A stretch of 64,000 nucleotides of DNA from Escherichia coli 042. Lineage in GTDB: Bacteria > Pseudomonadota > Gammaproteobacteria > Enterobacterales > Enterobacteriaceae. The translations under genes were made by a program, and so were the position numbers. Shown one piece after another: positions 3,211 through 63,442 of the stretch; position 1 is the stretch's first letter; every line of letters begins with the position of its first letter. The stretch lies in NCBI RefSeq assembly GCF_000027125.1, contig NC_017626.1. One strand, given 5' to 3'. The notes below the pieces were generated by a model. It saw only the letters and a program-made list of their open reading frames with translations. It did no database searches and was not told where the DNA came from.

Positions 3211-3501
3211 CCTGGCCTGAAGCATTAACAACGGTAGGAATTGCGATGGCGGTGGCGCTGGTGGTGTATTCGATTTGCCGCTGGGGATAAAAACGGTTTG
3301 CGGGAAAAGGAGAGTTAAGTAGAATTGCAGCGGGTGCTTGAGGCTATCTGTCTCAGGCATGAACACCAAAAGGCAGATAGAGAAAAGCCCCAGTTAACAT
3401 TACGCGTCCGGCAAGACGCTTAACATTAATCTGAGGCCATATCTATGCTCTACACACGTAGGTTAGCCTCTTACGTGCCGAAAGGCAAGGAGAAGCAGGC
3501 T

Positions 3502-3657
3502 ATGAAGCAGCAAAAGGCGATGCTAATCGCCCTGATCGTCATCTGTTTAACCGTCATTGTGACGGCACTGGTAACGAGGAAAGACCTCTGCGAGGTACGA
3601 ATCCGAACCGGCCAGACGGAGGTCGCTGTCTTCACAGCTTACGAACCTGAGGAGTAA
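3502..3657 (+). CDS. hokD: Hok/Gef-family type I toxin (HokD/RelF-like)
   Basis: 51-aa product MKQQKAMLIALIVICLTVIVTALVTRKDLCEVRIRTGQTEVAVFTAYEPEE matches my recollection of the Hok family (TM helix, conserved Cys, C-terminal AYE); in-frame upstream extension from 3445; hairpins downstream. Confidence 0.8.
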   Translation: MKQQKAMLIALIVICLTVIVTALVTRKDLCEVRIRTGQTEVAVFTAYEPEE

Positions 3658-3727
3658 GAGACCCGGCGGGGGAGTAATCTCCCGCCACCTCTGATGTGCC
3701 AGGCATCCTCAACGCACCCGCACTTAA

Positions 3728-3746
3728 CCCGCTTCGGCGGGTTTTT
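3728..3746 (+). terminator. Rho-independent terminator hairpin (copy 1 of a 20-bp repeat)
   Basis: cccgcttcggcggg followed by T-run; identical sequence recurs at 5563-5582. Confidence 0.6.
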
Positions 3747-3822
3747 GCATTAGTCTGGTTGACAAAAATAGAAAAATGCGAAAATATGTGGTTTACGAAT
3801 TCTAAAAAAAGCGAAACTTGAA

Positions 3823-4473
3823 ATGAATGAAAATCAGTTAGCTCCTTGTTGGGAATTTCAACCTTATCTTGCTGAAAACTATGTTCGCCACTTGTTGGCG
3901 GAGATCGCTAACGTACTTGAGCAGCTGTACTATCATAAGCACGCATTAGACAGCAACTGGTCTGAAGGTGTAAGGGCTTATGATTGGGTCAGAAATCATC
4001 TTATTCAAAATGAAGATGCAATTCCTGGCCTTGAGATGATTTCCAAGGGGTTGGACTATGTAGTTGCTTTAAATAAAGTTCCGCTACAATTTACCAAAGA
4101 TTGCATTAATAACCCCAAAAAGAAACATCGTCTGCGTCGAAATAAAGTAGAGTATGAGCAGCTCTCATTGTTTGGTGATGTTGAGGCTGAGCAAGATATT
4201 ACATGGCGAGTCATAGCTGAGCCTTTTTTATCCGAAGAGGGCGATGGTGAATTAGAGTCCACACTGCCTCGTTGGGAGGTAGCTCTTGTTGGATTTAATA
4301 CTTATGGTGCTCAGATTAGTATAGTTTCTCATCAATCTACAGCATCGATGCCGCTTATGCCTCTTGATTATAACACACTCCCTGACGAAGCGGAGATTAA
4401 TAAGGTGCCTCTTCGTCGGCGTACGAAGGATAAAGATTTGGATGTGAGCAGTGATGGAACATCAGGTGAATAA
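3823..4473 (+). CDS. Unknown 216-aa protein, upstream partner of HTH-peptidase (candidate toxin/effector)
   Basis: AT-rich ORF after TTGACA-containing promoter-like region; overlaps downstream gene by 23 nt; no family recognised by eye. Confidence 0.6.
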   Translation: MNENQLAPCWEFQPYLAENYVRHLLAEIANVLEQLYYHKHALDSNWSEGVRAYDWVRNHLIQNEDAIPGLEMISKGLDYVVALNKVPLQFTKDCINNPKKKHRLRRNKVEYEQLSLFGDVEAEQDITWRVIAEPFLSEEGDGELESTLPRWEVALVGFNTYGAQISIVSHQSTASMPLMPLDYNTLPDEAEINKVPLRRRTKDKDLDVSSDGTSGE

Positions 4474-5557
4474 CTTCACTGAGTATCGGGGTGATAAGCT
4501 CAAACTAGCGAGAATGGCTGTTGGGCTTTCTTGTGAAGAGTTAGCCGAAAAAATTGGCAAGACAAAGCAATTCGTTAGCAAACTGGAGAAGGGGTGCAGG
4601 CCATCGGAGCAATGTCTTGAGTTAATATCTTCAGCGCTTATGATTAAGTCCAGTTTTCTTTTTACTGAACGAAAATACGCTCTGGAAAGTGATGTCTGCC
4701 ATTTTCGGAGTAAGAAGTCCAGGACTCAAACGCTGACTAATAGTGTATTGGCCAGGGCTGAGATTCTTAATATTATAATTTCTGCTGTTGAAGGTGAAAT
4801 CGAATTTCCTGACGTTAACATACCGGAGCACCCAGGGGCTGAATTACTTACTCCGAATGATATTGAGCGAGTGGCAGAAGATTGTCGCCGTGCCTGGAAT
4901 TTAGGTCTTGGCCCTATATCATCAATGGTTAAATTGGCGGAGAGTTTAGGGGTAATCGTTGCGCATGTTACGGGAGTCGATGATCGTGTTGATGCTTTTA
5001 CTGTTCACAATAACAGGCCTGTTATCATCAGGAACAATGTTAAAAAAAGCATATGTAGATTTCGCTCTGATTTAGGTCATGAATTAGGGCATTTAGTAAT
5101 GCATGAGGGCATAACGACAGGTGATAAACTTACGGAATCACAAGCCGATCACTTTTCGAGCGCCTTATTAGTTCCCAGGTTATCTTTCATTAAAGAATTT
5201 CCACGAATACGAGGTAAGCAATTCGACTGGAATGCTCTGGTTGAATTTAAACTTAGATGGAAAATCAGCCTTAAAATGTGTATTTATCGAGCCAGCGCAT
5301 TAGGCTTATTGACCCAGGAACAGGCAAGAACTGGCTATATGCATCTTAATTCCAGAGGGTATACGAGAGTTGAACCTGGTGATGAACTTTTGCGCCCTGA
5401 AGAACCCGGCATGCTGGCCGAGGCGATTGAAATGCTGGATGATGCAACCTGGCTAAGAATTCTTATGAAAACTGGCTTGAGCCAAGATTTAATTCGTGAG
5501 TTGTTCTCCATCAACAGACCTATTACAAATCCAAGAAATATTTTCCAGATTGTTTGA
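4451..5557 (+). CDS. XRE-family HTH fused to ImmA/IrrE-type (HEXXH) zinc metallopeptidase
   Basis: N-terminal HTH (LARMAVGLSCEELAEKIGKTKQFVSKLEKG); C-terminal HELGHLVMHE motif typical of ImmA/IrrE (COG2856/M78-like) peptidases. Confidence 0.7.
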   Translation: MMEHQVNNFTEYRGDKLKLARMAVGLSCEELAEKIGKTKQFVSKLEKGCRPSEQCLELISSALMIKSSFLFTERKYALESDVCHFRSKKSRTQTLTNSVLARAEILNIIISAVEGEIEFPDVNIPEHPGAELLTPNDIERVAEDCRRAWNLGLGPISSMVKLAESLGVIVAHVTGVDDRVDAFTVHNNRPVIIRNNVKKSICRFRSDLGHELGHLVMHEGITTGDKLTESQADHFSSALLVPRLSFIKEFPRIRGKQFDWNALVEFKLRWKISLKMCIYRASALGLLTQEQARTGYMHLNSRGYTRVEPGDELLRPEEPGMLAEAIEMLDDATWLRILMKTGLSQDLIRELFSINRPITNPRNIFQIV

Positions 5558-5562
5558 GTATA

Positions 5563-5582
5563 CCCGCTTCGGCGGGTTTTTT
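5563..5582 (+). terminator. Rho-independent terminator hairpin (copy 2)
   Basis: cccgcttcggcggg plus T-run directly after the 4451..5557 stop. Confidence 0.6.
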
Positions 5583-5714
5583 GTTTTTATTTTCAACGTG
5601 TTTGAAGTTTTGGACGGTGCCAGAATAGAATCAAAAATACTTAAGTAGCGCGCAGGGAGAAGAGGGATGGACCCCGAACAGGGGGAGTGCTATTTATCTG
5701 GAAGGATTCTGTTG

Positions 5715-5888
5715 ATGAAAATCGAAGAATTACGTGAAATTTTTAGTGAAGATGGCCTCTATGCTGTGCGCGTTGAGAATGGGGGTATTACCTACACAGC
5801 GTTAATTCCTGATGATCATGTAGTGTTATCTGTTGAGGCATTCATTGAATACTTGGAAAGACTCGGTTTCAAGGTAGTTCGGGAATAA
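5715..5888 (+). CDS. Hypothetical small protein
   Basis: ATG at 5715 within ORF 5667..5888 (MKIEELREIF...); AT-rich upstream region. Confidence 0.35.
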   Translation: MKIEELREIFSEDGLYAVRVENGGITYTALIPDDHVVLSVEAFIEYLERLGFKVVRE

Positions 5889-5935: not shown

Positions 5936-6220
5936 TTGGAGATGACAATGGCGCATAATTTCAAATTTCGCAATTCTGATTCTGCCTTTGCCAGCAGGCA
6001 CGGGTGGCGTTCTCACGCATTCAAATATGACTGGTATCAGCACGATCCCTGTACTGAAGAACAGGCCGAATGGCTGATTCATAACTACCGCAGACGTGGA
6101 TATGAGTTTAGGAAAGCCCTCACCCTCGATTATCGTCACTGGATAATCTACGTCAGACTCCCTTATTCCGAACGCCCACCGCGTCCGTCCCGCACATTCC
6201 AGCAACGCATCTGGAGGTAA
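5936..6220 (+). CDS. Hypothetical phage protein (rem-like position)
   Basis: 94-aa ORF directly upstream of the DUF968 gene, same position as rem in Qin. Confidence 0.4.
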   Translation: MEMTMAHNFKFRNSDSAFASRHGWRSHAFKYDWYQHDPCTEEQAEWLIHNYRRRGYEFRKALTLDYRHWIIYVRLPYSERPPRPSRTFQQRIWR

Positions 6221-6221
6221 C

Positions 6222-7268
6222 GTGCGGGTATTACTTCGACCTGTTCTGGTACCGGAACTCGGGCTGGTGATCGTTAAGCCGGGCCGTGAATCCATGCCGG
6301 TATTCCACAATACCCGGGTACTGGTGGAGCCGGAACCGAAAAGCATGCGTAATCTGCCGTCCGGGGTCGTTCCTGCCGTTCGCCAGCCGCTGGCGGAGGA
6401 TAAATCATTACTGCCATTTTTCAGCGACGAACGAGTGATTCGTGCTGCTGGTGGCGCTGGCGCATTGTCTGATTGGTTACTGCGCCATGTTAAATCCTGC
6501 CAGTGGCCACACGGCGATTATCACCACAGTGAAACCGTCATTCACCGTTATGGTACCGGCGCAATGGTGTTGTGCTGGCACTGCGACAACCAGCTGCGCG
6601 ACCAGACCTCCGAATCACTCGGGCAACTTGCTCACCAAAACCTGTCTGCATGGATGATTGACGTCATACGCCATGCAATGAATGGCTCGCAGGAACGGGA
6701 ATTATCGCTGGCTGAATTATCCTGGTGGGCGGTCCGCAATCAGGTGGCGGACGCGCTACCGGAAGCGGTATTACGTCGTTCGCTGGGGTTGCGTGCGGAA
6801 AAAATCCGCTCAATGTACCGTGAAAGCGACATCGTACCGGGAGAGCAGACCGCCACCAGCATACTGAAGCAGCGCACAAAAAATCTTGCGCCGCTGCCTC
6901 ACGCCCACCAGCAAAACCCGCCACAGGAAGAGACGGTGGTCAGCATTGCCGTTGATCCTGAGTCTCCGGAATCTTTCATGAAACGACCTAAACGTCGCCG
7001 CTGGGTTAACGAGAAATACACACGCTGGGTGAAGACACAGCCGTGTGCGTGTTGTGGTAAGCCAGCCGACGATCCCCATCACCTGATTGGTCATGGTCAG
7101 GGCGGAATGGGGACAAAATCTCACGATATTTTCACGCTACCGCTGTGTCGGGAGCATCACAACGAGCTTCATGCGGATCCGCTGGCGTTCGAAGAAAAGC
7201 ATGGTTCTCAGGTTGATTTAATTTTTCGTTTTCTTGATCACGCCTTTGCAACTGGCGTGCTTGGGTAA
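6222..7268 (+). CDS. DUF968-family phage protein (YdfU-like)
   Basis: 348 aa; C-terminal Cys/His cluster CACCGK...HHLIGHGQGG...CREHHNELH recalled from YdfU-like prophage proteins; sits upstream of rusA/Q. Confidence 0.6.
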   Translation: MRVLLRPVLVPELGLVIVKPGRESMPVFHNTRVLVEPEPKSMRNLPSGVVPAVRQPLAEDKSLLPFFSDERVIRAAGGAGALSDWLLRHVKSCQWPHGDYHHSETVIHRYGTGAMVLCWHCDNQLRDQTSESLGQLAHQNLSAWMIDVIRHAMNGSQERELSLAELSWWAVRNQVADALPEAVLRRSLGLRAEKIRSMYRESDIVPGEQTATSILKQRTKNLAPLPHAHQQNPPQEETVVSIAVDPESPESFMKRPKRRRWVNEKYTRWVKTQPCACCGKPADDPHHLIGHGQGGMGTKSHDIFTLPLCREHHNELHADPLAFEEKHGSQVDLIFRFLDHAFATGVLG

Positions 7269-9047: not shown

Positions 9048-10097
9048 ATGCTTAATACTGTAAAAATATCCAGTTGTGAGTTAATCAACGCCGACTGCCT
9101 GGAATTTATCCGGTCGTTACCCGAAAATTCTGTTGACCTGATAGTCACGGACCCGCCGTACTTTAAAGTGAAGCCTGAAGGCTGGGATAACCAGTGGAAG
9201 GGCGACGATGATTACCTGAAGTGGCTGGACCAGTGTCTGGCGCAGTTCTGGCGGGTGCTGAAACCTGCCGGAAGTCTTTACCTGTTCTGTGGTCATCGCC
9301 TGGCATCTGATATCGAAATCATGATGCGTGAACGCTTCAGTGTGCTGAACCATATTATCTGGGCGAAGCCGTCCGGACGCTGGAACGGATGCAACAAGGA
9401 AAGCCTGCGGGCGTATTTCCCCGCCACAGAGCGCATTCTGTTCGCGGAACATTATCAGGGGCCGTATCGTCCGAAAGATGCCGGGTATGCGGCGAAGGGC
9501 AGTGCACTGAAACAGCATGTGATGGCCCCGCTGATTTCTTACTTTCGTGATGCGCGCGCGGCCCTGGGGATAACGGCAAAACAGATTGCAGATGCCACAG
9601 GAAAGAAAAACATGGTGTCGCACTGGTTCAGTGCCAGTCAGTGGCAGCTACCGAACGAAAGCGATTATCTGAAATTACAGTCGCTGTTTGCCCGGGTGGC
9701 AGAAGAGAAACATCAGCGCGGTGAACTGGAAAAGCCCCACCACCAGCTGGTGGATACGTATACGTCACTGAACCGGCAGTATGTGGAGCTGCAGAGTGAA
9801 TATAAGCATCTGCGGCGGTATTTTGGTGTGACGGCGCAGGTGCCGTACACGGATGTGTGGACACATAAACCGGTGCAGTTCTATCCCGGGAAACATCCGT
9901 GCGAAAAACCGGCAGAAATGCTGCAGCAGATAATCAGCGCAAGCAGTCGTCCGGGTGACCTGGTTGCAGATTTTTTTATGGGCTCAGGTTCAACGGTAAA
10001 AGCGGCACTGGCGCTCGGGCGTCGTGCGATTGGCGTTGAACTGGAGACCGGACGTTTTGAGCAGACAGTCAGGGAAGTTCAGGATTTAATCGTTTGA
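9048..10097 (+). CDS. DNA N6-adenine/N4-cytosine methyltransferase (beta-class), no partner nuclease seen
   Basis: IVTDPPYF (motif IV) near the N-terminus and FMGSGST (motif I) near the C-terminus. Confidence 0.8.
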   Translation: MLNTVKISSCELINADCLEFIRSLPENSVDLIVTDPPYFKVKPEGWDNQWKGDDDYLKWLDQCLAQFWRVLKPAGSLYLFCGHRLASDIEIMMRERFSVLNHIIWAKPSGRWNGCNKESLRAYFPATERILFAEHYQGPYRPKDAGYAAKGSALKQHVMAPLISYFRDARAALGITAKQIADATGKKNMVSHWFSASQWQLPNESDYLKLQSLFARVAEEKHQRGELEKPHHQLVDTYTSLNRQYVELQSEYKHLRRYFGVTAQVPYTDVWTHKPVQFYPGKHPCEKPAEMLQQIISASSRPGDLVADFFMGSGSTVKAALALGRRAIGVELETGRFEQTVREVQDLIV

Positions 10098-10146: not shown

Positions 10147-10222
10147 GGCCCTTTAGCTCAGTGGTGAGAGCGAGCGACTCATAATCGCCAGGTCGCTGGT
10201 TCAAATCCAGCAAGGGCCACCA
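10147..10222 (+). tRNA. ileZ: tRNA with CAT anticodon, Ile2 (lysidine)-type or Met
   Basis: 76-nt cloverleaf: acceptor ggccctt/aagggcc, T-arm gctgg-ttcaaat-ccagc, anticodon loop ctCATaa, 3' CCA; close to recalled E. coli tRNA-Ile2. Confidence 0.85.
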
Positions 10223-10229
10223 TCACATA

Positions 10230-10306
10230 CCGCCATTAGCTCATCAGGAAAGAGCGCCAGCCTTCGAAGCTGGTTGCGCGGAGTTCGGGTCCCCGAAGGC
10301 GGTCCA
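10230..10306 (+). tRNA. tRNA-Arg (anticodon TCG as read)
   Basis: 77-nt cloverleaf: anticodon stem ccagc/gctgg with loop ctTCGaa, 3' CCA; one mismatch each in acceptor and T stems. Confidence 0.6.
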
Positions 10307-10319
10307 TTATCTGTATCCT

Positions 10320-10396
10320 GCGTTGTTAGCTCAGCCGGACAGAGCAATTGCCTTCTAAGCAATCGGTCACTGGTTCGAATCCAGTACAACGCGCCA
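10320..10396 (+). tRNA. tRNA-Arg (anticodon TCT)
   Basis: 77-nt cloverleaf: acceptor gcgttgt/acaacgc, T-arm actgg-ttcgaat-ccagt, anticodon loop ctTCTaa, 3' CCA. Confidence 0.85.
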
Positions 10397-10440: not shown

Positions 10441-10656
10441 TCTCACAATTCAGGCGGTTGACTGTTGTCTGGTTTGCGGGGAGTTTGTTAAAAGAAACTG
10501 GCATGGTGAATCCCCCTGTGCGGAGGGGCAATCAGCGAGTAGGTATATGGGATAATCGCGGATTCAGGTGCTGGTACTGAATTCACCGGGAGGCACCCGG
10601 CACCATGCAATGGCACATAGCGCCACTCTCCAGCCCCTCTCCGGAGGGGCTTTTCT
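10441..10656 (+). repeat. Structured repeat unit 1 (sRNA-like: promoter-like box, hairpins, terminator)
   Basis: Shares with unit 2 the blocks tcacaattcag, ttgac, ttgttaaaa, gcatggtgaatccccctg.gcggagggg, gtataat/ggataat, caccgggaggcacccggcaccatg and terminator gcccctctccggaggggc+T-run. Confidence 0.55.
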
Positions 10657-10908
10657 GTGCCGGATACATCACAGTTTCTGGAACCTTAGGTACTACAGTA
10701 TCAGTCAGGGTGCTATATTTTCAGATGTGATGAAAGCCTGTCAGCAGGCAGGGCGTATCGGAAATGACCCAGTAGAGAAAACGTTGACTCAGATACCGGT
10801 GCTGAGTTACCGGGAAACCGGCATCACATGACCGCTATCCTTCCAGGCCCATCCGCTCCGGTGGGCCTTTTTACTGCAGAAAACAGGTTCCCCGTTAAAT
10901 GCTATGTT

Positions 10909-11141
10909 GCTCACAATTCAGTAAGTTGACAGTTGCCTGTCAGACTGGGCATTTGTTAAAAAAATTTCGCATGGTGAATCCCCCTGAGCGGAGGGGCGAC
11001 TGGTGACGGTATAATCTCTGATTATCAAAACGAGAATGACGCGGGTTTAGTGGCACCGGACTGAACTCACCGGGAGGCACCCGGCACCATGTGCATGATG
11101 ATACAGATACGCGGCTTTAGCCCCTCTCCGGAGGGGCTTTC
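10909..11141 (+). repeat. Structured repeat unit 2 (sRNA-like)
   Basis: Second diverged copy of the same ~220-bp unit, with a perfect TATAAT at 11010-11015. Confidence 0.55.
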
Positions 11142-11371
11142 TTATGGACAAAAAAAGCCCGCGCTGGGAGACGCGGGCGGCAAGGAATAAACAATAAAAC
11201 GTGAAGTAATATTTCAGCTGGCGAATAATACCCCATAGTAATCACTCTGCGCAACTGCGCGGTCTTTTTCGAATTGCGGGCTGTAGTCTCCCTTCTGCCA
11301 TTGTCCTGTAACTTCCGGACTTCAGCCTGCTCCTTATCTGACTCACAACATTATCCCGCCCGGGAGGATTC

Positions 11372-39916: not shown

Positions 39917-40500
39917 TGGTATTCAGAATGAGTGAACAACCACGGACCATAACAATTTATAATCTGCTGGCCGGAACTAATGAATTTATTGGTGAAGGTG
40001 ATGCATATATTCCGCCTCATACAGGTCTGCCAGCAAACAGTACCGATATTGCACCGCCAGATATTCCGGCAGGCTTCGTGGCTGTTTTCAACAGTGATGA
40101 GGCATCGTGGCATCTCGTTGAAGATCATCGGGGTAAAACGGTTTATGACGTGGCTTCCGGCGACGCGTTATTTATTTCTGAACTCGGTCCGTTACCGGAA
40201 AATGTTACCTGGTTATCGCCGGAAGGGGAGTTTCAGAAGTGGAACGGCACAGCCTGGGTGAAGGATACGGAAGCAGAAAAACTGTTCCGGATCCGGGAGG
40301 CGGAAGAAACAAAAAACAACCTGATGCAGGTAGCCAGTGAGCATATTGCGCCGCTTCAGGATGCTGCAGATCTGGAAATTGCAACGGAGGAAGAAACCTC
40401 ATTGCTGGAAGCCTGGAAAAAGTATCGGGTGTTGCTGAACCGTGTTGATACATCAACTGCACCTGATATTGAGTGGCCTACGAACCCTGTCAGGGAGTAA
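39916..40500 (+). CDS. tfa: Tail fibre assembly protein
   Basis: 194 aa directly after stf with ATGA overlap. Confidence 0.8.
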
Positions 40501-50562: not shown

Positions 50563-50589
50563 AATTTTGTTCAAAAAAAGCCCGCTCAT
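50563..50589 (-). terminator. trp attenuator terminator
   Basis: agcccgcctaatgagcgggc plus U-run on the minus strand, between trpL and trpE. Confidence 0.85.
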
Positions 50590-50641
50590 TAGGCGGGCTG
50601 GGTATCTGATTGCTTTACGCATGGTGAATACACTGCCCGTT

Positions 50642-50686
50642 TCAGGAAGTGCGCCACCAACCTTTCAGTACGAAAATTGCTTTCAT
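50642..50686 (-). CDS. trpL: trp operon leader peptide
   Basis: Reverse complement reads atgaaagcaattttcgtactgaaaggttggtggcgcacttcctga = [14 protein letters not shown] with tandem Trp codons. Confidence 0.95.
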
Positions 50687-63070: not shown

Positions 63071-63442
63071 TTATCATCATTCTTATTACCCATTTTTAAT
63101 CAATTAAAGGGCTTTTAATACACCGCAGCAATAACAGGTTGAGTTATCTCAACACAAAGTAATAACCGTTAAGGGTGTAGCCTATGATCAACACAAATAT
63201 GAAATATTGGTCCTGGATGGGCGCATTTTCTCTGTCGATGCTCTTCTGGGCCGAACTCCTCTGGATCATTACTCACTGATCCCTGACCCCGCTGCGGCGG
63301 GGTTTTCATTTGCTTTGCCACAAGGTTTCTCCTCTTTTATCAATTTGGGTTGTTATCAAATCGTTACGCGATGTTTGTGTTATCTTTAATATTCACCCTG
63401 AAGAGAATCAGGGCTTCGCAACCCTGTCATTAAGGAGGAGCT

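Follow-up and report, generated by a model that had tools for sequence, protein, structure and literature searches.

RosmerTA (RmrT/RmrA) systems, as defined by Millman et al. 2022 (bioRxiv 10.1101/2022.05.11.491447), include the Escherichia coli system OLC-716, which confers phage defence and whose rmrA deletion is not transformable (bioRxiv 10.1101/2022.05.11.491447). Other pairs have been placed in the same family or share its architecture: RipA/RipB (Spr1630/Spr1629) of Streptococcus pneumoniae, assigned to the Rosmer family by its authors (PMC12795458); Vmi480/Vmi470 of Vibrio mimicus MGIVmi1, in which the toxin is lethal in E. coli and is rescued by co-expression from PBAD (PMC4671572); and a prophage pair of E. 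coli E101 that makes clpP essential (bioRxiv 10.1101/2020.05.25.114553). Rosmer-type toxins have also been tied more generally to clpP or clpX essentiality (bioRxiv 10.1101/2020.05.25.114553; 10.64898/2025.12.09.693261), a dependence reminiscent of SocB in Caulobacter (PMC5422525). Here we describe a two-gene cassette, rmrT-rmrA, in a 64,000-nucleotide stretch of E. coli 042 DNA (contig NC_017626.1), referred to below as the window. The surroundings are those of a lambdoid E. coli prophage, with the cassette lying between hokD and the rem/DUF968/rusA/Q block. We estimate a probability of roughly three in four that the cassette is an autonomous RosmerTA-type toxin-antitoxin and anti-phage "moron" that works by the mechanism proposed below. 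Taken separately, its identity as a RosmerTA toxin-antitoxin pair is very probable, and protection against some phages is somewhat favoured.

An earlier interpretation made from the letters alone, the sequence-only reading, had proposed a RosmerTA-like toxin-antitoxin or defence module composed of a gene at 3823..4473 and an overlapping second gene at 4451..5557. Both open reading frames (ORFs) are present as claimed, and PADLOC assigns the first to RmrT (PDLC03929) and the second to RmrA (PDLC03943). The genes and the domains of the second are laid out as follows, where HTH denotes helix-turn-helix.

3823..4473, plus strand: rmrT, the toxin gene, 216 aa from an ATG start (WP_001004956.1, annotated "hypothetical protein")
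4454..5557 (or from 4451), plus strand: rmrA, the antitoxin/regulator gene (WP_000401168.1)
4490..4675, plus strand: XRE-type HTH of RmrA, approximately residues 14-75 (Pfam HTH_3 at residues 17-63, E = 2e-6, and HTH_31)
4979..5296, plus strand: ImmA/IrrE-type Zn-metallopeptidase domain of RmrA, Peptidase_M78 (PF06114 at residues 177-282, E = 1.2e-10)

The match of RmrT to PDLC03929 (E = 4.6e-25) runs from residue 7 to residue 209 and covers positions 5-195 of the 198 in the profile; the 11 other family members tested all match the same profile, with E values reaching 3e-72. RmrT also belongs to PHROG 5786, a group of unknown function (E = 8e-85). The sequence-only reading had cast this gene as the effector of the pair, a role that the toxin profile supports, and had found it unplaceable in any family, which does not hold. 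No match to RmrT was found by sequence in Pfam, NCBIfam, or the PDB, and the alternative named earlier, a known phage replication or regulatory protein, did not appear in Pfam or NCBIfam. RmrA matches PDLC03943 over its full length (E = 6.2e-105) together with the 13 further RmrA profiles, all 14 in total, as well as PHROG 2439 (E = 8e-123). As predicted, RmrA combines an XRE-type HTH with an ImmA/IrrE-type peptidase: the HTH matches SinR and the 434 repressor among PDB sequences and SinR, C-proteins, CapH, ImmR, and DdrO by Foldseek, and the closest solved fold to the peptidase is that of CapP (7T5T). The HELGH motif (nt 5078-5092) and the downstream ESQADHFSSALLVP motif (E-x-x-A-D-x-F) are both intact, as are HExxH and the E-x-x-A-D-x-F motif in 17 of the 17 RmrA partners examined.

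The toxin family is small. A scan of 1.84 billion representative proteins returned only 37 relatives of RmrT, and those identifiable by organism are from Gammaproteobacteria. A fold search of AFDB50 with RmrT gave 90 relatives at E ≤ 0.001, and among the 50 listed, almost all are unnamed proteins of approximately 200 aa, some of them from Alphaproteobacteria. An HTH-M78 gene lies directly downstream of the toxin gene in 10 of 10 distant relatives (divided into two genes in one of them) and in every IMG/VR locus with enough sequence, and the two-gene arrangement is kept in every related locus with room for both genes. The toxin diverges faster than its partner, at 52-85% identity compared with 64-92% for the antitoxin. 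In the AlphaFold2 (AF2) model (predicted local distance difference test score, pLDDT, 80; predicted template modelling score, pTM, 0.71), RmrT folds as a soluble alpha/beta domain, and from approximately residue 172 onwards its tail is disordered. The fold is unlike that of the membrane-depolarising toxin of phage Kita (PMC10440598), and no long hydrophobic segment was seen in RmrT.

Several individual loci deserve mention. In E. coli FDAARGOS_1249 (NZ_CP069459.1, 1256502-1259868), the 5' part of rmrT is interrupted by an IS5 element; what remains of the gene is an ORF of 140 aa, and rmrA is intact. This single strain fits toxin-antitoxin logic. In one of the distant relatives (ENA ERZ28496113, ctg16195), RmrA is encoded downstream of the toxin by two genes, one for a 152-aa HTH protein and one for a 223-aa peptidase, with two N6/N4 methyltransferase genes nearby; this could be either a natural split or a frameshift. 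A viral genome from IMG/VR (IMGVR_UViG_2740892442_000002) lacks one base close to the 3' end of rmrA, so that the last ~25 residues are changed, while its rmrT is intact; this could reflect a sequencing error or a tolerated C-terminal truncation. Finally, a 123-aa fragment from Escherichia marmotae in AFDB (A0AAW5MWQ8), 99% identical to RmrT, bears the UniProt name "Replication protein (Fragment)", probably a mis-annotation because the name is shared by none of the other listed relatives.

Comparison with the described systems shows that the cassette resembles OLC-716 in design. Both are two-gene operons from the same species with an XRE-HTH and M78 Zn-peptidase antitoxin and a toxin of approximately 200-240 aa that has no known domain, and in relatives of the OLC-716 toxin a QLxLF/QLxLxL-type motif and a basic tail at the C-terminus lie at places equivalent to those described below for RmrT. 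Gene numbering and strand in the table of Millman et al., taken unchecked, suggest that the OLC-716 operon is also toxin-first. The two differ in toxin subfamily, PDLC03929 here and PDLC03935 there. The likeness to RipAB extends to RmrA, which aligns end to end with the NCBIfam spr1629-family antitoxin model (E = 1.5e-45), although at 155.9 bits the match lies below the curated cutoff of 335 bits. Unlike the cassette, RipAB is chromosomal, belongs to a Gram-positive host, and is linked to competence. Vmi480/Vmi470 and the E101 pair are also toxin-first, with a toxin of approximately 200 aa and an HTH-Zn-peptidase of approximately 362 aa; from size, spacing, and context only, we infer that their toxins belong to the same family as RmrT. 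A Vibrio fluvialis locus (GCA_028988305.1) encodes a 199-aa toxin, P0034, that matches PDLC03929, then a 5-nt gap and a 361-aa antitoxin. With a divergent resolvase gene upstream and an SMC/AAA_15 gene downstream, the locus as a whole fits the published description of Vmi480/Vmi470 on MGIVmi1 (PMC4671572), and the P0034 pair is likely an orthologue of that experimentally validated system. As a guess, the E101 suppressor T46S could fall on the conserved D-x-x-[WY]-[ST] motif.

More distant likenesses are also apparent. The CapH/CapP, ImmR/ImmA, and DdrO/IrrE pairs share with RmrA both the M78 peptidase fold and the XRE HTH; in those, however, repressor and protease are separate proteins and cleavage of the repressor induces other genes, whereas here HTH and peptidase are fused in one ORF whose partner is a toxin. 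The E. coli defence system PD-lambda-2 (Vassallo et al. 2022, PMC9519451) likewise sets an Xre-peptidase fusion beside a toxin-like gene. It comprises three genes, a HigB-like gene first, the Xre-peptidase, and a P4-antitoxin-like gene third, and the Xre-peptidase is its toxic component (PMC9519451). Between the terminators of the cassette there are only two genes, and no match to a PD-lambda-2-type HigB-like or third gene was found there. SocB of the Caulobacter crescentus SocAB system blocks replication through a clamp-binding motif that occupies the clamp's hydrophobic cleft, and is restrained by ClpXP (PMC9690074, PMC5422525). The cassette has no sequence or fold relationship to SocAB, and SocA is a ClpXP adaptor instead of an HTH-peptidase; the likeness is at most functional convergence.

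The two genes are co-oriented and adjacent, with one promoter and one terminator, and thus form a single operon. Their overlap is 20 or 23 nt, depending on whether rmrA begins at ATG 4454, the RefSeq choice (367 aa), or at GTG 4451 (368 aa); in homologous cassettes the overlap is 14-23 nt. A TTGACA-containing promoter-like region had been noted upstream of the genes, and it proves to be the core of a conserved arrangement.

3757..3796, plus strand: cassette promoter and probable operator, comprising box 1, the -10 element, and box 2

Box 1, GGTTGACA at 3757-3764, holds the -35 hexamer TTGACA (3759-3764); a -10-like AAATAT follows at 3782-3787 after a 17-nt spacer, and box 2, GTTTAC, at 3791-3796. 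A consensus promoter scan called no promoter at TTGACA, the -10 being weak (AAATAT). Phylogenetic footprinting supports a sigma-70 promoter at this position. Over the ~75 nt upstream of rmrT there is hardly any variation between cassettes with proteins that differ by 15-37%, and the family-wide layout is a GGTTGACA box serving as the -35, an xAxAAT -10 element 16-18 nt on, and then directly a GGTT(T/G)AC box. We collected 13 non-redundant upstream regions, from 10 distant toxin relatives, the window, and closer relatives, spanning Enterobacterales, Aeromonas, Vibrio, Photobacterium, and Pseudomonas. Of these, 11 have paired GTT[GT]AC boxes at a spacing of 31-34 nt, compared with a mean of 0.0025 in shuffled sequence. 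To judge from this sequence pattern, the HTH of RmrA would bind the two GTT(G/T)AC boxes and so autoregulate the operon.

The cassette is bracketed, as the sequence-only reading had noticed, by two copies of the same terminator hairpin.

3727..3746, plus strand: left terminator hairpin (ACCCGCTTCGGCGGGTTTTT), the hokD terminator and left edge of the cassette
5562..5581, plus strand: right terminator hairpin (ACCCGCTTCGGCGGGTTTTT), the terminator of the cassette and right edge of the insert

The 20-nt ACCCGCTTCGGCGGGTTTTT is found exactly twice, as an exact direct repeat with copies 1835 nt apart, and each of the two is scored as an intrinsic terminator. In phages PPompW and mEp460 just one hairpin, with nothing inserted, lies between the same flanks, an empty site from which we conclude that the insert is bounded by a duplicated terminator. 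In agreement with its proposed status as an accessory insert and not a conserved part of the prophage core, at least 80% of the cassette is present in only 236 of 5,426 complete E. coli genomes, strain ABU 83972 among them, at essentially 100% identity. A far larger number, 3,972 of the 5,426, match part of the query (3700-5600), and in the phage records listed it is the hok terminator, the first 48 nt, that matches. The earlier description of the cassette as AT-rich relative to its flanks is accurate as to base composition (GC 0.39-0.45 over 3801-5600, 0.50-0.52 just upstream, and 0.55-0.57 at 6000-7000) and overstated as a distinguishing mark, because other early-region stretches of the prophage are as AT-rich, 2200-2800 equally so.

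Close relatives of the cassette occur in 49 IMG/VR loci. In four of the related cassettes, which are 80% identical at the DNA level (L042, L043, L047, and L048), homology starts at 3725-3730 and stops at 5555-5582, and the flanks are unrelated to the window; cassettes elsewhere end in hairpins of their own, of the form AACCCGC-loop-GCGGGTTTTT. The cassette and its relatives occupy widely different positions: behind DnaD/DnaC-like loaders; with the tape-measure gene on one side and minor tail genes on the other; between Q and holin (Serratia) or between the lysis genes and terminase; between Mor and endolysin in a Mu-like Aeromonas prophage; and before DUF1367 (Xenorhabdus), beside IS66, and in a resolvase-bearing Vibrio island. 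Such scatter characterises a moron or defence cargo, not a core prophage gene. The genes rmrT and rmrA are strictly inherited together, and the two travel as one unit among prophage positions, defence islands, and genomic islands. In tblastn searches of 50,697 phage records with rmrT and with one of its relatives, P0051, no match was found; prophages are the only known source of the cassette, even though it is represented in PHROG 5786.

Two of the neighbourhoods are of interest in their own right. On a Pseudomonas contig (Logan SRR31646616), a relative adjoins a Thoeris system (ThsA SIR2/STALD, ThsB TIR) and an Mrr-type nuclease, with a second, stand-alone Peptidase_M78 gene downstream, a defence-island context. 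In phage Tritos (OV696610.1, 36012-39526), a different two-gene cassette occupies the same hokD|DUF968 junction. Its 204-aa toxin matches other RmrT profiles (PDLC03933/03934), and its ImmA/IrrE-XRE protein, 381 aa long, has only 32% identity with the RmrA of the window. The hokD|DUF968 junction of lambdoid prophages looks like a hotspot of Rosmer allele exchange.

A second feature of RmrT is a short motif that the sequence-only reading had flagged, speculatively, as resembling a beta-clamp-binding sequence, a suggestion that has gained ground. It stands here with a basic patch in the C-terminal tail.

4150..4179, plus strand: codons of E110-YEQLSLFGD-119, a QL[SD]LF-type beta-clamp-binding motif in an acidic flexible loop
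4405..4422, plus strand: codons of V195-PLRRR-200, a basic patch that is conserved within the otherwise disordered RmrT C-terminal tail

QL(S/D)LF is the bacterial clamp-binding consensus (PMC9690074). EQLSLFGD comprises residues 112-119 of RmrT, with QLSLF encoded at nt 4159-4173, and it lies in the best-conserved stretch of the family, P98-K-K...N107..E110..Q113-L-x-L116-F117. In a 35-sequence alignment, E110 is conserved in 33, Q113 in 30, L116 in 29 (the position is hydrophobic in all 35), and F117 in 25, and position 114 is L in 19 and Y, M, or I in 8 more. The family variants of the motif include QLSLL, QLSLP, QMTLF, and QYELF, a spread that resembles the variation in natural clamp-binding motifs. 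Residues 116-121 have pLDDT below 50 in the AF2 models of RmrT alone and of RmrT fused to RmrA, which, as far as a model can tell, agrees more with a flexible, exposed loop than with a buried core or a site of antitoxin binding. The precedent comes from the pneumococcal Rosmer toxin RipA: mutations located in DnaN's hydrophobic pocket suppress it and also abolish the RipA-DnaN interaction (PMC12795458); this pocket is what a QLSLF motif would bind. The RipA-DnaN paper makes no mention of a motif, and in the literature searched we found no link between Rosmer systems and the clamp besides it. From the motif and by analogy with RipA, clamp poisoning would be the likely toxic mechanism of RmrT; for the narrower claim that RmrT acts through the clamp pocket, we regard the balance as even.

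Similar elements are visible in toxins of other subfamilies. A motif-like stretch occurs at the equivalent place in 7 of 9 OLC-716-type relatives (PDLC03935), in the forms QLKLDL, QIDLF, QLDLF, QLELDL, QLFLPG, QLSLF, and QMYLF, and RmrT proteins of this type have a similar basic tail, [VI]x[VI](R/K)R(R/K)A. Enterococcus and Lacticaseibacillus phage toxins (PDLC03933/03940) carry QYNLF and EISLF, and the phage Tritos toxin and a Staphylococcus toxin carry more degenerate forms. From sequence comparison we put forward, tentatively and at somewhat less than even odds, that several RmrT subfamilies with no detectable sequence similarity elsewhere may share, as a hallmark, both a QLxLF-type motif in a flexible acidic loop and a short basic tail at the C-terminus. 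Among these subfamilies are PDLC03929, PDLC03935 (the OLC-716 type, verified as anti-phage), and PDLC03933/03940 (the Gram-positive phage types). No paper proposing this combination as an RmrT hallmark was found in the literature searched. If the proposal is correct, many RosmerTA systems would be clamp-poisoning abortive-infection devices, with the toxin tethered by its tail to the RmrA peptidase and ClpX assisting until infection; the RipA-DnaN result would then extend to E. coli defence systems, with the interaction motif named.

The basic patch, which is conserved in the tails of RmrT family members, offers a candidate site for neutralisation. In an AF2 model of an RmrT-(G4S)6-RmrA fusion, which is ambiguous overall (pLDDT 79, pTM 0.63), only RmrT residues 191-200 gain confidence, rising from a pLDDT of 70 to 90 and forming beta-bridges. 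The model hints that the basic tail is a handle or cleavage site for RmrA. Neutralisation of Vmi480 by Vmi470 from a heterologous promoter (PMC4671572) indicates that repression alone is not the whole story. RipB needs ClpX (PMC12795458, December 2025).

Together these elements outline a possible mechanism for the cassette. Its sigma-70 promoter drives a bicistronic rmrT-rmrA operon ending at its own terminator, and RmrA at the boxes flanking the promoter would hold expression in check. RmrA would also neutralise RmrT as a protein, probably through the VPLRRR of the disordered tail, with ClpX or ClpXP probably assisting, by analogy with the RipAB and E. coli E101 systems. Were this control to fail, upon phage infection or loss of RmrA, the exposed QLSLF loop of free RmrT would enter the beta sliding clamp (DnaN) at its hydrophobic protein-binding pocket. 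The blocked clamp would stop host and phage replication, and the infection would be aborted.

A number of points weigh against this proposal. Every function in it, from toxicity and neutralisation to DNA binding, proteolysis, and phage protection, is a prediction. RmrT has no similarity to the verified OLC-716 RmrT by BLASTP (E = 7) or by hhalign (probability 0.6%), and a pTM of 0.63 leaves the fusion model ambiguous. The Rosmer toxin of phage Kita depolarises membranes and does not target replication (PMC10440598), so Rosmer toxins do not have one common mechanism. The clamp-type motif is internal and starts at the end of a short helix (108-114), and the near-invariant E110, three residues upstream, lies outside any clamp-binding consensus and hints at another role. 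RmrT might instead be an enzyme, for example, nuclease-like, that uses the clamp as a landing platform only, or one with a target unrelated to the clamp and a QLSLF that is structural; we consider such an enzyme distinctly improbable.

The role of the cassette can also be read differently from the one proposed here. It might be an addiction or stabilisation module only, keeping the prophage or itself in place by post-segregational killing and giving no protection against phages. It does lie directly beside hokD/sok, another addiction-type gene, same-architecture systems were first described purely as toxin-antitoxin pairs (PMC4671572), and RipAB has a competence role and no shown role in defence (PMC12795458). 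However, the OLC-716 and Kita RosmerTA systems protect against phages (bioRxiv 10.1101/2022.05.11.491447; PMC10440598), a Pseudomonas defence island contains a relative with Thoeris and an Mrr nuclease as neighbours, and the cassettes occupy classical moron sites in many prophages, as is typical of superinfection-defence cargo. Addiction and defence are not exclusive roles, and a purely addictive function seems unlikely to us. Much further down in probability is a prophage switch of the ImmR/ImmA or CapH/CapP type, with the first gene as regulated cargo or an antirepressor and not a toxin. The resemblance of the RmrA peptidase to CapP and of its HTH to CapH, ImmR, and DdrO would suit a switch, as would operator-like boxes that suggest transcriptional control. 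The cassette nevertheless retains its own promoter and terminator at unrelated positions (tail and lysis modules, defence islands, plasmids), never next to a lysogeny module; the host prophage has a repressor region of its own; HTH and peptidase are fused and not a separate repressor-protease pair; and the first gene matches toxin profiles. We rejected an ImmR/ImmA-type switch on these grounds and retain the RosmerTA toxin-antitoxin and defence reading.

The cassette thus belongs to a further subfamily of a known system type, RosmerTA, one that standard defence finders already recognise. For annotation, 236 complete E. coli genomes gain a RosmerTA cassette in place of a "hypothetical protein" and a "helix-turn-helix domain-containing protein". 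The clamp-type motif, the conserved basic tail, and the two-box operator are three testable leads; should they prove true, they would explain how one antitoxin type controls many toxins and would link RosmerTA defence with an arrest of replication, an effect shown to date for pneumococcal RipA only.

The remaining observations concern the host prophage and the rest of the window. Upstream of the cassette lie replication genes, small nin-type ORFs, and the hokD/sok type I toxin-antitoxin locus, which is directly adjacent at 3332-3657 (Rfam sok, 117 bits; hok/mok ORF at 3445-3657) and whose terminator is the hairpin duplicated around the cassette. Downstream are a small ORF, DUF968, rusA, Q, a DNA methyltransferase gene, and three tRNAs. 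The small ORF (73 aa, 5667-5888) stands where other phages have rem, and RefSeq annotates there only a 75-nt partial pseudogene (~5715-5789). The three tRNA genes (10147-10393) lie downstream of the phage DNA methyltransferase gene (9048-10097) and are followed by two tandem copies of the small RNA STnc100 at 10472-10662 and 10940-11149. Further Rfam matches are IS009 (40259-40457), STnc180 (63111-63313), and a Trp operon leader (50572-50665, minus strand), the last of which indicates that this part of the window is chromosomal and not prophage.

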